A stretch of DNA of 24,846 bases, from UHGV virus genome UHGV-1599541; one strand, written 5' to 3'. Both the position numbers and the translations under genes were made by a program. The DNA comes from a virus. Positions 4,573-22,946 of the stretch are shown one piece after another. Every line of letters starts with the position of its first letter. The first letter of the stretch is position 1. Under the pieces are notes generated by a model that was given only the letters and a program-made list of their open reading frames with translations, ran no database searches and was not told where the DNA came from.

Positions 4573-5163
<591 letters not shown>

Positions 5164-5219
5164 TTAACAGATTCTACGAGTTGTCATTTGTGACTGTATG
5201 CTCGCAATCGTAGTGATTA

Positions 5220-5759
5220 CTACCACCAACTGCTAGCTTTCTTCTCTCTGGCTTTTCCTTCGCTTTGCAGTAAATCTTTACTTCCTGTAGAAATATTTCT
5301 ATTTGCATCAGCCTCAGACTGAATTACATCTGTCTTAGCTGCTCTCTCCTTCAACTCCTGCTCTATAAAATCGTTTTCTCGCTGGACACGAGCCGCTTTT
5401 GCTTGCAGTTCGAGTTTCATGCTTTCGAGTTGCAGCTTGCGAAGCTCATCCTCATAAGCTTGATCTCGTTTCTTGTCATTTGCTAGCTCGGCTTCTCGTT
5501 TCGCTCTACGTTCATTTTCTGCAGCAACGCGCTGTTTTTCGCGTGCAGCAGCGGCAGATGCTGCTTTTTCTCTTCTAACACGTTCAGCTTGTGCTTGTTG
5601 GCGAATAAGTTCTTTTCTGGCATCCTCAGCTTGCTGCTCTTTAGCTCGCCCTTCATTTTCCGCTTGAGCAATAGCAGCAATTTGACTTTGCAACGAGTTA
5701 GCCAAGGCAGTGCCTGCACTAAACGTAGAAAAGATTAGAAATAAAATAATTTTATTCAT
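5220..5759 (-). CDS. Secreted charged coiled-coil protein (179 aa) with cleavable signal peptide; candidate superinfection-exclusion (Sim-like) factor
   Basis: N-terminus MNKIILFLIFSTFSAGTALA then NSLQ (Ala-x-Ala cleavage site); remainder is A/E/R/K/Q-rich with heptad-like charge pattern (e.g. QAQAERVRREKAASAAAAREKQRVAAENERRAKREAELA). 3-bp spacing to upstream lipoprotein gene. Confidence 0.6.
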   Translation of the reverse strand: MNKIILFLIFSTFSAGTALANSLQSQIAAIAQAENEGRAKEQQAEDARKELIRQQAQAERVRREKAASAAAAREKQRVAAENERRAKREAELANDKKRDQAYEDELRKLQLESMKLELQAKAARVQRENDFIEQELKERAAKTDVIQSEADANRNISTGSKDLLQSEGKAREKKASSWW

Positions 5760-5762
5760 AAA

Positions 5763-6284
5763 TTATTTCTTTTCTGGACAAGTAGCATTTGGCTGAATTC
5801 GGGTTTCATTATCTTTAGTTGAAATGAGCACAGCAAGCCCTGTTGTAAACTGGCATGCTTTACCAACCTGAGTAGAAGTAAACACCTTAGTGCCTTCTTT
5901 ATAAGTCAGTGAAACCCCCTCAACAATTGTTTTATCACTAACCAAAGAACCAGCTGCTGCACCAAGAGCTGCGCCACCAGTACCACCAGCTACAGCACCC
6001 AAAGTCGATGTACCTTTAACATTATAACCGGCGACCCCACCAGCAACAGCCCCCAGTACCGCACCAAATGTCTGTGCTGCTTCTTTATTAGCTTTATTGT
6101 CAACTTTTACTTTAGCTGGAAGCACAGAAATAATATTGACAGTCTTTGTTTCCTGCTTCGAATTCAATTGAGCGGTATCATAAACATCGGCTGCATAATC
6201 AGCACCGTTTGATTGGCAACCAGAAAGAAGGAATGCAGAAACAACCAGAGAGCACAAAACAGATTTTTTAGACATAAGAATCAT
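5763..6284 (-). CDS. SlyB/Pcp-like glycine-zipper outer-membrane lipoprotein (173 aa)
   Basis: Lipobox LLSGC after a hydrophobic leader; Gly/Ala zipper GAVLGAVAGGVAGYNVKGTSTLGAVAGGTGGAALGAAAGS; C-terminal GVSLTYKEG..VFTSTQVG resembles the SlyB C-terminus. Start may be Met4 (MSKKS...). Confidence 0.7.
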   Translation of the reverse strand: MILMSKKSVLCSLVVSAFLLSGCQSNGADYAADVYDTAQLNSKQETKTVNIISVLPAKVKVDNKANKEAAQTFGAVLGAVAGGVAGYNVKGTSTLGAVAGGTGGAALGAAAGSLVSDKTIVEGVSLTYKEGTKVFTSTQVGKACQFTTGLAVLISTKDNETRIQPNATCPEKK

Positions 6285-6566
6285 CCAAGAAAAACAAAAA
6301 ACGGCGAGAAGTTACCACGAGAACGGAAAGCAAACAAGAATACTCCTATTGACTTATATCAATTAATCAACTTTTTATAAGCTATCCCTAACTTATTGGG
6401 TATAGCTAAAGAGTCAGAGACAAGTTCACCACCTGCATTATTTCTTAAGTTAATAGTTTACTGCTAACTTAATTTATGTATCGACTATTGATATCCATCT
6501 TAAAGTTACAATATCCCTCTGTATTATTTTTAATCACAAATAATATTTTCTTTTGTATGAGATTTG

Positions 6567-6583
6567 CCTGCTCTAATAAATTT
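6567..6583 (+). promoter_or_regulatory. C1 repressor operator-like 17-mer (Op51-like) upstream of c4/icd/ant
   Basis: CCTGCTCTAATAAATTT matches the asymmetric P1 C1 operator consensus ATTGCTCTAATAAATTT at 15/17; near-identical copies at 8231-8247 and 22930-22946. Confidence 0.6.
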
Positions 6584-6769
6584 GTATTTTTAAGTCGAAA
6601 ATGCTATCTTTTCGCTTCATATTGACCTTTTAATCGTTCAGGCTTATAGTTCCGCCGTCGTAGCAAATTCTACGACCGGGTTTAGCAGCCTGAATACTCA
6701 TGCGGACAACCGCAGATATCCGATATTGCGGTATTTTTGTGTCCGTAAACCACGTTACGCCCAAATTAT

Positions 6770-6846
6770 GGTGGGGCGTGATGGGGAGGCTTCGGCCTGC
6801 TGGTTTCATGAGTACCAGTCTGCTAACCCCGTCACGTCCTGCCACC
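6770..6846 (+). ncRNA. c4: c4-type antisense repressor RNA (boundaries approximate)
   Basis: Stem 6800-6804/6814-6818 with 9-nt loop TTCATGAGT (6805-6813) complementary to ACTCATGAG at 6879-6887, which covers the icd SD. Adjacent CTGCTAA (6820-6826) is complementary to GTTTAGCAGC, present upstream (6680-6689) and downstream (6848-6857). No long ORF on this strand; a GGC-TTCG-GCC tetraloop hairpin lies at 6788-6797. Confidence 0.5.
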
Positions 6847-6896
6847 CGTTTAGCAGCGGGTAGCAGGTTGTTAATTCAACTCATGAGGCCGTAACT

Positions 6897-8230: not shown

Positions 8231-8247
8231 TTTGCTCTAATAAATTT
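8231..8247 (+). promoter_or_regulatory. C1 operator-like 17-mer (Op53-like) upstream of kilA-repL
   Basis: TTTGCTCTAATAAATTT, 16/17 to the C1 operator consensus; about 70 bp upstream of the kilA ATG. Confidence 0.6.
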
Positions 8248-10470: not shown

Positions 10471-11103
10471 CTATGCCGCATTTCCAATTATGGATTCAGC
10501 GACCAGAACAACCCCATGCTTACTTCGATCTGGGTGTTCACTCCATATCTCGGATTCAGGAATACTTACCCCGTCATAGCAAACACGTTCGCCGTCAAAC
10601 GGGTAATACTGAGCGGCATCGGTGTCGAGGATAAACACTTTTAGCTCGGAAGAGCGACGGGCGATGTGTTGCCAAAGAGCTTTTCCACCTTCGTATTGCT
10701 CATTATCACTGAGCAAAACAACACCAGCCTTTGAGGCTACGGTTTCGTAAACAAAAGTAGCTAAACCGACATCCCGGACAGTTCCATCAACCACGATACC
10801 TTCAATCTGGGCAACATCGCTATCCTCCCAGAACTTCCTTACCAGTACGCCTTCAAGCTGCGGGCGACGTTGAAGTTCAAGAGTAGCGACAACCTTATGC
10901 CGCATATCACCATCGATAACAGAAGGCGCAGCCTCTATTACAGCTGCAAATGGGGTTTTGGAATCCCATATAACCTGGTAAAGCACACCCTGGATGGTAA
11001 CTCCGTCCAGGATCGAAAATCGACGAGCGACAGTACCCGGGGAGTACGACATTGGAATCACAGCCATTTTAGAGTCCCCCTTTAACAGTACAGGCACAAA
11101 CAT
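10471..11103 (-). CDS. Hypothetical morphogenesis-operon protein (210 aa)
   Basis: ORF track; last gene of the minus-strand operon; the real start may be the internal Met (MAVIPMS...). Confidence 0.5.
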   Translation of the reverse strand: MFVPVLLKGDSKMAVIPMSYSPGTVARRFSILDGVTIQGVLYQVIWDSKTPFAAVIEAAPSVIDGDMRHKVVATLELQRRPQLEGVLVRKFWEDSDVAQIEGIVVDGTVRDVGLATFVYETVASKAGVVLLSDNEQYEGGKALWQHIARRSSELKVFILDTDAAQYYPFDGERVCYDGVSIPESEIWSEHPDRSKHGVVLVAESIIGNAA

Positions 11104-21138: not shown

Positions 21139-21471
21139 TTAGTTACCGCTGATAGCGCGGTTGTAATCATTAACGTTGCGATTCTTCCTGTTAATCCCCA
21201 TCAGCATCGTTTCTGTATCAAGGATATAGGCTGGCAGATCATCAAAATATTCACTGCTAAACTCTGGCATCCTGCACATAAATGCACTTTTGGGGGCAGG
21301 GTGGTTAACCTTTGTCGGCGTCGGCGTTAAATTCGCTGATCGACTCCCGGAGCAACCGCTGAGTGTCAGCAGGAATGCGCTGGCGAACATTACCCGCCGC
21401 AACCAGTTGTTTCTGAACTTCAGCTTTTCGTTCCATTTGCCTGTCAGCATATTTGGCTTGTTCTGATTCAT
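21139..21471 (-). CDS. o-spanin-like outer-membrane lipoprotein (Rz1-type), overlapping the upstream gene in another frame
   Basis: Lipobox LTLSGC; mature part about 70 aa, Pro-rich (LTPTPTKVNHPAPK) with one Cys; the start is either ATG 21471 (SD AGGAAGTG) or internal Met at 21390. Overlaps 21305-21727 by 86-167 bp. Confidence 0.55.
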   Translation of the reverse strand: MNQNKPNMLTGKWNEKLKFRNNWLRRVMFASAFLLTLSGCSGSRSANLTPTPTKVNHPAPKSAFMCRMPEFSSEYFDDLPAYILDTETMLMGINRKNRNVNDYNRAISGN

Positions 21472-21727
21472 TTTTCACTTCCTGGCTGTGAAAATGTTGA
21501 TCCGCTTTATTCATCGTCTCAATGGTCTGGTTAAGATCACTGATTGACTTATCGCGCTCCTTAACAGCCTGATCAAGGCTGCCAATTTTTTCCAAGGCTT
21601 GCTTTAACTGATAACGTTCCCATGCAAACCCAGCACCAACAAGTGCGCAAATCAGGACAAGAACACCAGTAACAGCAAGTTTCTCCTTCAAAGACAAAGC
21701 TGTTTTTAACGTTGAAAAAAACGACAT
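21305..21727 (-). CDS. i-spanin-like protein (Rz-type): N-terminal TM helix plus periplasmic coiled coil (140 aa)
   Basis: SD AGGAGGAA 5 nt upstream; TM LAVTGVLVLICALVGAGFAW; charged helical C-terminal region; classic overlapped arrangement with the lipoprotein gene. Confidence 0.6.
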   Translation of the reverse strand: MSFFSTLKTALSLKEKLAVTGVLVLICALVGAGFAWERYQLKQALEKIGSLDQAVKERDKSISDLNQTIETMNKADQHFHSQEVKNESEQAKYADRQMERKAEVQKQLVAAGNVRQRIPADTQRLLRESISEFNADADKG

Positions 21728-22929: not shown

Positions 22930-22946
22930 ATTGCTCTAATAAATAT
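22930..22946 (+). promoter_or_regulatory. C1 operator-like 17-mer in a divergent promoter region
   Basis: ATTGCTCTAATAAATAT, 16/17 to the C1 operator consensus; lies between the minus-strand operon start (22848) and the plus-strand small-ORF start (23018). Confidence 0.6.

Follow-up and report, generated by a model that had tools for sequence, protein, structure and literature searches.

What would a P1-type phage-plasmid gain from a pair of envelope-directed genes placed between its tail operon and c4/icd/ant? The question is raised by a 24,846-nucleotide stretch of viral DNA, UHGV virus genome UHGV-1599541 (hereafter the window, meaning the whole stretch at its full length), in which two adjacent minus-strand open reading frames (ORFs) occupy positions 5220 to 6284. 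The first gene of the pair (5763..6284) encodes a 173-residue SlyB-family glycine-zipper lipoprotein predicted to reside in the outer membrane, and the second (5220..5759) encodes a 179-residue secreted protein of the DUF5384 family, modelled as one long charged α-helix. Judged by sequence, this module is a copy, by now diverged, of the core enterobacterial (proteobacterial) operon yfgH–yfgI, and it lies exactly where phage P1 carries its sim genes. The likeliest role, in our assessment, is that the phage pair strengthens or remodels the outer membrane of the lysogen as host YfgH does, an envelope function that would benefit the host; we hold this view tentatively, giving it somewhat less than an even chance, and weigh it below against several alternatives, including the superinfection exclusion proposed in a first-pass annotation of the sequence.

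A yfgH–yfgI operon in a phage-plasmid

The window matches RCS47, P1, P7, SJ46 and others at 95–97% identity across 84–93% of its length, and by this measure it is part of a P1/P7-type phage-plasmid (punavirus). Its genes run in the order sit, pmgB, tub, pmgC, the yfgI-like and yfgH-like pair, c4 RNA, icd, ant1/2, kilA and repL, after which come tail and head genes and then parBA and repA. The pair is accordingly flanked by pmgC/tub/pmgB/sit on one side and by c4 RNA (6764–6849; Rfam RF01695, 72 bits), icd, ant1/2, kilA and repL on the other; both the two minus-strand ORFs and their position between the tail operon and c4/icd/ant are as the first-pass annotation had described them.

A 1.6-kb region containing the pair shows ~95% nucleotide identity to P7 and to about ten further P1-like phage records. 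The yfgH-like and yfgI-like genes correspond to P7 upf50.5 and upf50.0 (GenBank AF503408; AAQ07514 and AAQ07513), with 97% and 99% protein identity, respectively, and in both elements are located between tubA(pmgC)/LPsit and Op(c4); unlike that of P7, however, the lipoprotein gene of the window is a recombinant nucleotide allele. The P7 record describes upf50.5 as an outer-membrane lipoprotein and upf50.0 as a membrane protein, both without assigned function and both similar to E. coli K-12 proteins (AF503408), and the exact window proteins are present in NCBI from an E. coli assembly (EER1251227.1 and EER1251226.1). The genes themselves, the lipoprotein nature of one product and the similarity to E. 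coli have thus been in GenBank since the P7 deposit. What is new here is the explicit yfgH–yfgI/SlyB assignment, the exact borders of the cassette and its frequency relative to sim, together with the mobile-element clade, the strict gene linkage and the selection data; nothing in the module falls outside known kinds.

Other names are attached to the same genes in public records. The lipoprotein falls in PHROG 1277 (E=1.6e-94), which is labelled 'DNA methyltransferase', and this wrong product name has been copied to the gene in RefSeq phage records; those that carry the gene are NC_050152 (P7), NC_031129 (SJ46), NC_042128 (RCS47) and NC_019445 (TL-2011b). In phage phi456, the pair is named 'minor tail protein / tail tip protein'.

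The relationship to the host operon is evident at several levels. A low-stringency DNA search matched chromosomal yfgH–yfgI at ~70% identity in 5421 of 5426 complete E. coli genomes, and at the protein level the lipoprotein is 68% identical to E. coli BL21 YfgH over 171 of its 173 residues (E=3e-75), while its partner is 47% identical to BL21 YfgI over the full length. The phage genes share with E. coli YfgH–YfgI (b2505–b2506; srgI–srgL in Salmonella Typhi) the operon order and the lengths of the products, and the lipobox, the glycine zipper, two conserved cysteines and the C-terminal motifs of DUF5384 have all been kept. They differ from the host pair in belonging to a separate mobile-element clade, in having an unrelated leader, and in the N-terminal half of the helix, which is 34% identical to that of host YfgI as compared to 62% for the C-terminal half.

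Gene linkage was evaluated by scanning one genome per species, which yielded 61 loci encoding YfgI relatives in Enterobacterales, Photobacterium, Pseudomonas, Haemophilus, Acinetobacter, beta-proteobacteria and acetic-acid bacteria. A YfgH homologue was found directly upstream and on the same strand in every locus for which upstream DNA was available (58/58; Gamma-, Beta- and Alphaproteobacteria), and such obligate linkage speaks for joint action of the two proteins. Because of it, and because only 3 nt separate the two genes in the window (TAA TTT ATG, read from the sequence; gap at 5760..5762, minus strand), the pair is one operon and is probably translationally coupled. To judge from the DUF5384 match, the full-length SlyB match, the low ratio of non-synonymous to synonymous substitution (dN/dS) and the conserved gene pair, both ORFs are real genes rather than chance ORFs.

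Phage TL-2011b and about 50 'viral' matches in IMG/VR were considered as further phage-borne copies and rejected, since they represent host yfgHI at the edges of prophage predictions; their identities of 68%/47% are the same figure as for the E. coli chromosomal copy. The TL-2011b record (L005/L069, JQ011317) contains yfgI, yfgH and yfgG together with a 1.5-kb pdeF fragment, and about 50 predicted prophages of ~40 kb (IMG/VR L033-L089) end within or beside host yfgH–yfgI. These prophage ends point to host flank within 'phage' records, or to an integration site beside the operon.

A SlyB-like lipoprotein

The lipoprotein gene contains a second ATG at 6275, which gives the 170-residue form used by RefSeq. 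Pattern matching reveals a lipobox, L20-S-G-C23, with Gln at +2 (6216..6227, minus strand); Cys23 is invariant across a 42-sequence family alignment, and all 31 invariant columns of the YfgH-family alignment are matched by the window protein. According to the sorting rule of the Lol pathway, lipoproteins without Asp at +2 are directed to the outer membrane, and the lipobox with its Gln at +2 therefore implies, as a prediction, that this lipoprotein is sorted there. Residues 70–116 are dense in GxxxG/A repeats. Together with the helices of an AlphaFold2 model and the alignment to SlyB, these repeats delimit a glycine-zipper helical hairpin at residues ~73–115 (5940..6068, minus strand), which is predicted to be the membrane-inserted, ring-forming part of the protein.

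Homologues of the lipoprotein are numerous (482 at E<=1e-5), and many close ones have precomputed hits to PF05433 or PF13441. The window protein itself reached PF05433 (Rick_17kDa_Anti, glycine zipper 2TM) only below the gathering cut-off of the family (E=0.0025; 18.1 bits versus 24.2). Comparison with solved structures was more informative: phmmer matched residues 11–165 to residues 8–154 of SlyB in the PDB (E=1.7e-5), and a profile built from the 42-sequence family matched PDB SlyB with E=1.5e-9. The AlphaFold2 monomer is of low confidence, with a predicted local distance difference test (pLDDT) score of 57 overall and 70–78 in the beta parts, and displays the layout strand, helix 64–88, helix 94–114, strands. 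Foldseek returned SlyB 7ojf_A as the sole significant match to this model (E=4.2e-6, probability 1.00, template modelling (TM) scores 0.53/0.64). Sequence and model together support the assignment to the SlyB/YfgH family of glycine-zipper lipoproteins, with a lipobox, a helical hairpin and a small beta domain, in agreement with the SlyB-like outer-membrane lipoprotein of the first-pass annotation.

SlyB (PDB 7OJF/7OJG) is a PhoPQ-regulated glycine-zipper lipoprotein that encloses outer-membrane proteins in ring-shaped nanodomains. The phage lipoprotein shares its lipid anchor, helical hairpin and beta domain, with homology over the full length at 26% identity. It differs in that SlyB has no DUF5384 partner gene, and ring formation by the phage lipoprotein is something we infer from the family. 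As the title and abstract of a preprint have it, SlyB is reportedly tied to envelope stress tolerance and pathogenesis in Yersinia pestis.

The secreted helical partner

The yfgI-like protein matches Pfam DUF5384 (PF17358) with E=2.8e-43 and 147.9 bits against a cut-off of 25, its residues 39–179 corresponding to profile positions 4–145 of 145. A signal peptide spanning residues 1–20, with cleavage at ...TALA/NS (5700..5759, minus strand), was read from the sequence, and the P7 record carries an identical 20-residue sig_peptide feature. The mature protein comprises 159 residues, of which 41% are charged and 19% are Ala. AlphaFold2 yields a single unbroken helix from residue 3 to 178 (pLDDT 87), and the mature helix of ~159 residues is modelled as at most ~24 nm in length. 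Because heptad periodicity is marginal (p≈0.03) and hydrophobic residues account for only 11% of the N-terminal half, the protein resembles a single charged helix more closely than it does a classical coiled coil.

The first-pass annotation had described a signal-bearing, charged coiled-coil protein resembling domain II of TolA. The signal peptide and the long, highly charged helix are borne out, whereas the coiled coil is weak; likewise, the resemblance to TolA holds for composition but not for homology, as scans of Pfam and NCBIfam at E<=1 returned no TolA family for this protein (NCBIfam gave noise only for both window proteins). Like TolA domain II, the partner would be a long Ala/Glu/Lys/Arg-rich periplasmic helix that could span much of the periplasm. 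Unlike TolA, it has a cleavable signal peptide and is predicted to be secreted, with neither a membrane anchor nor the TolA C-terminal domain. An action of the pair on the Tol-Pal system, which the first-pass annotation also raised, is as conjectural as exclusion.

Family alignments show conservation in the C-terminal half (residues 94–179; 5223..5480, minus strand), which contains the motifs RDQxYEDELR and QSEADANRN and a C-terminal SWW (SWW/WF in the family), while the N-terminal half is variable. Searches of the PDB gave no solved relative of this protein, and in the literature we found no paper mentioning DUF5384, upf50.0 or upf50.5; for E. coli yfgI mutants, only DNA-damage sensitivity has been reported (PMC11619404). 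Whatever the function of the phage pair, its strict linkage and the phage copy provide a simple genetic handle on YfgI (DUF5384), a protein without an assigned function.

Non-homologous exchange at the sim locus

The borders of the module were determined from a four-way alignment of the window, P7, P1 and phage Ro157c2YLVW. Homology among all four includes pmgC, the late promoter LPsit and the inverted repeat of that promoter (5146..5191, minus strand; LPsit annotated in P7 and P1), ends at ~5191, and restarts exactly at the C1 operator Oc4 (Op51; 6567..6583, plus strand), an operator match with 2 mismatches that is likewise annotated in P7 and P1. Between these left and right borders lies an exchangeable cassette (5192..6566, minus strand), for which P1 has simC-simB-simA, the window and P7 have the yfgHI-like pair, and Ro157c2YLVW has a third cassette of two ORFs. 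The sim region has been described as 'highly variable region 4' of P1-like phage-plasmids (PMC9603915), and its variability as such is therefore already published. A search of 5,426 complete E. coli genomes, about 500 of which have a P1-like pmgC, found the cassette in 183 and full-length simABC in 127, with a partial sim match in a further ~124.

The first-pass annotation suggested that the module may correspond to the P1 sim locus. This is correct with respect to position, which is exactly that of sim, but not with respect to descent. In BLASTP comparisons of both window proteins with SimB and SimC (SimA, with 52 residues, lay outside the comparison), no meaningful similarity was detected; the best alignment to SimC reached 19 bits over 30 residues, and SimB gave none. 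On these comparisons the module is a non-homologous replacement of sim rather than its counterpart by descent. It resembles simABC in its identical slot and orientation (LPsit/pmgC to Oc4, transcribed away from c4) and in its apparently exported products, and differs in composition, P1 having three genes and no lipoprotein where the window has two genes, one of them for a lipoprotein. All products of the three alternative cassettes, namely SimA, SimB and SimC, the 158- and 215-residue proteins of Ro157c2YLVW, and the window pair, start with a signal-peptide-like segment as judged by inspection and hydropathy rather than by a dedicated predictor.

The third cassette (L006, 2599-3774) encodes two secreted proteins of 158 and 215 residues with no informative family. 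The 215-residue protein has its signal peptide and first ~35 residues in common with P1 SimA, and the leader of this cassette is in common with P1.

The setting invites the proposal that the cassette is a functional analogue of simABC, active in Sim-like superinfection exclusion or receptor shielding. In such a mechanism, lipoprotein rings and the ~24-nm helix would interrupt infection by P1-type or other phages after adsorption and before DNA entry, or would prevent colicin uptake, either by confining receptors in the outer membrane or by barring the way across the periplasm. The slot and its borders are those of simABC, whose simC is a superinfection-exclusion gene (PMC2409434) and whose genes are dispensable for plaque formation (PMC10695390), and the signal-peptide-like start is common to every product of the alternative cassettes. 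Further points in favour are that a relative of the pair occurs at a prophage end beside tail-fibre genes, a typical moron position; that YfgH co-purifies with the phage and colicin receptor proteins OmpA/C/F, LamB and TonB-dependent receptors; that the mobile copies form a separate clade; and that the hairpin weakly resembles the surface-exclusion lipoprotein TraT (Pfam E=7e-5). However, besides lacking similarity to SimB or SimC, the pair matches no PADLOC family, and the resemblance to TraT is sub-threshold and in profile comparison aligns the signal peptide only. Selection on the genes is also strongly purifying and no exposed segment is hypervariable, in contrast to many exclusion proteins directed at receptors, and the pair is found on tiny non-phage plasmids as well. 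Moreover, E. coli K-12, which has yfgHI, is fully sensitive to P1, and P1 and P7 classically plate on each other's lysogens, so that any single-copy exclusion of P1 must be weak. A literature search found no paper tying a glycine-zipper lipoprotein to exclusion. Overall, we regard exclusion as possible but on the unlikely side; it is compatible with, rather than mutually exclusive of, a role as outer-membrane stabiliser. If true, it would constitute a new mechanism built from a host stress protein, and would show how sim can be substituted by non-homologous cassettes.

Comparison with TraT and defence families

TraT of F-like plasmids (PDB 9FS5, a decameric ring), which functions in surface exclusion and complement resistance, is like the phage protein a mobile-element outer-membrane lipoprotein with a Gly/Ala-rich helical hairpin. 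The Pfam match of the window lipoprotein to TraT (PF05818) has 23.1 bits, below the gathering cut-off of 31, and precomputed PF05818 hits exist on many members of the lipoprotein family. BLASTP against TraT gave E=0.02 over the hairpin. The family profile search of the PDB did not find TraT, hhalign aligned only the signal peptide, and the Foldseek comparison with TraT 9fs5_A was not significant (E=0.55). Membership in the TraT family was rejected as these stricter tests all failed, and the likeness is taken as a loose analogy only. Defence-system profiles were equally uninformative: PADLOC-DB 2.0 contained no family matching either window protein at E<=1, and SimC and the Ro157 proteins were likewise without a PADLOC hit.

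The comparison bears on the idea of a TraT/Bor-type virulence conversion, in which a surface-associated ring of the lipoprotein would protect against complement or host antimicrobial peptides instead of phages or detergents. Besides the weak TraT-family match, which covers the hairpin and the following strand, the idea finds some encouragement in Salmonella Typhi, where srgIL is induced by SdiA and acyl-homoserine lactone within a regulon shared with virulence-plasmid genes, and is absent from Typhimurium (PMC11619404). The reported tie of SlyB to pathogenesis in Y. pestis points the same way. Yet TraT membership fails every stricter test, and the idea overlaps largely with that of an outer-membrane stabiliser, with envelope robustness as the common mechanism. 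As an explanation in its own right, we consider virulence conversion very improbable.

Mobile copies, phylogeny and selection

Relatives of the pair occur on several other mobile elements. A second allele, 85%/80% identical to the window pair, occupies the same place in IncY P1-like plasmids (e.g. pfosA3) and is accompanied by an extra DUF559 gene. Additional copies were found in an insertion sequence (IS)- and integrase-rich E. coli island (86%/78%), and, at aspS–yecD, in the terminal part of a prophage or remnant that has P2-type tail genes, beside the tail-fibre genes (~70%/68%). Two ColE1-type plasmids also carry the pair, as the only cargo of a 4.2-kb plasmid (74%/63%, the latter partial) and, on a 7.5-kb plasmid, together with a lipopolysaccharide (LPS) phosphoethanolamine transferase (75%/54%).

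Some details of these carriers may be recorded. In pfosA3 (NZ_CP047005; L007, 1425-2684) the extra gene lies between pmgC and the yfgI-like gene and encodes a 419-residue DUF559-domain protein with hydrophobic N-terminal segments, a proline-rich repeat and a weak match to PADLOC PDC-S37 (a candidate system; E=1e-5). The prophage copy from E. coli (L090-L093, 7476-8546) places the mobile-clade pair between a chromosomal isochorismatase gene and the tail-fibre genes. Both ColE1-type plasmids are small and mobilisable, the 4.2-kb one being from Citrobacter (L009) and the 7.5-kb one from E. coli (L008); the transferase of the latter is CptA/EptB-like and not of the MCR family. The proteins encoded on a 7.6-kb contig labelled Acinetobacter sp. 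(L103) match their E. coli plasmid counterparts at 100% identity, suggesting either cross-genus spread or contamination.

In neighbour-joining trees of both proteins, calculated without bootstrap, the alleles from P1-like elements group in one clade with the copies from the island and the prophage, apart from the vertically inherited Escherichia/Citrobacter/Kluyvera clade, and the ColE1 copies form another lineage. Among the named chromosomes of the one-genome-per-species scan, identity of the encoded YfgI to the phage protein does not exceed ~58%, and the capture is therefore old.

The substitution patterns differ between the two genes. Relative to P7, the lipoprotein gene shows 34 synonymous and 6 non-synonymous differences, corresponding to a synonymous divergence (dS) of 0.32 and a dN/dS of 0.05, compared to a dS of 0.03 for the neighbouring yfgI-like gene. 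The lipoprotein gene is therefore recombinant, with a break inside the cassette; its nucleotide allele was not seen in the phage collection. Values of dN/dS are 0.05–0.18 across the two genes relative to P7, about 0.06 for the lipoprotein gene relative to the second phage allele (dS being saturated for the yfgI-like gene), and 0.12 relative to the host gene. Purifying selection on both genes is strong. In the mobile clade, variability of the hairpin does not exceed that of the beta parts and no surface loop is hypervariable, and hence there is no sign of an arms-race surface.

These data speak to the suggestion that the cassette is a functionless passenger, a host-derived fragment lodged in a recombination hot spot. 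Such a view would fit a locus known to be variable (PMC9603915) and a lipoprotein gene that has recombined relative to P7. However, neither frame is disrupted in any carrier and selection on both is strongly purifying throughout, the cassette occurs in more complete E. coli genomes than does full simABC, and a second allele, 80–85% identical, has been kept at the same place. A functionless passenger is thus extremely improbable.

The distinct mobile lineage, carried by P1/P7-type phage-plasmids, a prophage with P2-type tail genes, islands and ColE1 plasmids, can also be read as the product of a change in function, whereby yfgH–yfgI, a housekeeping device against outer-membrane stress, became a barrier analogous to Sim. 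Constitutive lipoprotein rings would corral receptors or LPS patches, and the ~24-nm helix would obstruct passage of the tail tube or DNA, or colicin translocation. We judge such re-purposing unlikely, though hardly negligible; if it did occur, the commonest P1 sim-locus allele would represent an undescribed exclusion or colicin-tolerance system, and would reveal the job of YfgI.

The leader and a possible role in lytic growth

The AT-rich leader noted in the first-pass annotation is confirmed: it extends over 282 bp from the start codon to the C1 operator (6285..6566, minus strand), and GC content falls to 27–36% over ~6300–6600 compared to ~47% nearby. Its ~110 proximal bases are common to the second phage allele, with the rest unshared. 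The leader is unrelated in sequence to that of the host yfgH–yfgI operon, and regulation is therefore presumably different. A consensus scan of the leader detected no minus-strand sigma-70 promoter, and in a position-weight promoter scan of 6260–6660 the best score was 5.6 against a shuffled median of 7.6. Inspection of the leader by eye gave no convincing sigmaE-like motif, and no second C1 operator was found within it, Oc4 at the far end being the only one.

A further proposal is that the pair serves the phage's own lytic cycle, either by holding the outer membrane together in late growth until the lysis proteins act, or through an altered envelope or vesicles that keep progeny from re-adsorbing to debris. 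LPsit and the tail operon follow the cassette directly and share its strand, no repressor operator is nearby other than Oc4 at the distal end of the leader, and YfgH-type proteins limit blebbing and outer-membrane protein loss (10.64898/2025.12.22.696046). Nevertheless, LPsit lies downstream of the two genes, with no late-promoter element upstream of them; the corresponding P1 genes are not needed for plaques (PMC10695390); P1-type phages with sim or other cassettes manage without the pair; and the same pair is carried by non-phage plasmids and the island. A lytic role is, on balance, improbable.

A proposed outer-membrane function in the lysogen

The function of host YfgH is described in a preprint (bioRxiv 10.64898/2025.12.22.696046). 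YfgH fractionates with the outer membrane, its deletion leads to sensitivity to sodium dodecyl sulphate (SDS)/ethylenediaminetetraacetic acid (EDTA) and to higher permeability, and it becomes essential once outer-membrane biogenesis genes are depleted. Leaky expression of YfgH from a plasmid rescues LptD and BamA depletion, so that added YfgH dosage alone is beneficial. The protein co-purifies with BamA, LptD, OmpF/C/A, LamB and TonB-dependent receptors, to a greater extent in the presence of EDTA; SlyB-like rings are predicted for it by AlphaFold3, and suppressors of the yfgH deletion map to cardiolipin synthase (10.64898/2025.12.22.696046).

By analogy, the exported phage lipoprotein would go to the outer membrane and oligomerise via its glycine zipper into rings of the SlyB/YfgH kind that surround outer-membrane proteins and lipid patches. 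From the periplasmic side, the helical partner would act with it, probably through the conserved C-terminal half. The prophage would in this way add an extra, differently regulated dose of an outer-membrane stabiliser, and the lysogen might better tolerate envelope stress in the form of detergents or bile, chelators, or defects in outer-membrane biogenesis, which would amount to lysogenic conversion; receptor shielding could be a side effect. We favour such an envelope function because of the YfgH dosage effect and because the pair is the sole cargo of small plasmids, and its occurrence on ColE1 plasmids and in an IS-rich genomic island supports a benefit apart from P1 biology. The first-pass annotation missed both the relationship to yfgH–yfgI and the identity with P7 upf50.5/upf50.0, in light of which an outer-membrane stabiliser is at least as likely as exclusion.

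Several considerations weigh against an added dose of stabiliser. The promoter scans of the leader found nothing recognisable, and nearly every E. coli already has yfgHI, such that the gain from a second copy is not obvious. The separate, old clade that unites the mobile copies in both trees hints at a specialised role over simple dosage, and the location in the slot of a known exclusion locus, for which all alternative cassettes encode exported proteins, favours a role of the exclusion type. In addition, confidence in the lipoprotein monomer model is low (pLDDT 57), and the work on YfgH, itself a preprint, makes no mention of yfgI (10.64898/2025.12.22.696046). If the pair is indeed envelope-protective, about a third of natural E. 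coli P1-like phage-plasmids would give their hosts an extra outer-membrane stabiliser, with a bearing on survival in bile, detergents and membrane-active drugs; these elements also spread resistance genes.

Other features of the window

A second envelope-directed pair is located at ~21139-21727 (minus strand) and consists of the P1 genes mlp (membrane lipoprotein precursor) and ppfA (possible periplasmic function), which are counted among the most conserved P1-like genes. Apart from Oc4, there are C1 operator matches with 1 mismatch each at 8231-8247 (plus strand), the kilA/repL operator, and at 22930-22946 (plus strand), upstream of the uhr/rdgC region. Near the c4 RNA, an Rfam isrK match at 6657-6738 (plus strand; 47.8 bits, just under the gathering score of 50) overlaps the c4 a1/b1 target element (RF03163, 6644-6696). 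Finally, the variable rlfA/rlfB region after repL contains a 210-residue ORF (10471-11103, minus strand) without a Pfam family, and RCS47 has an IS605-family transposase where this region of the window differs.

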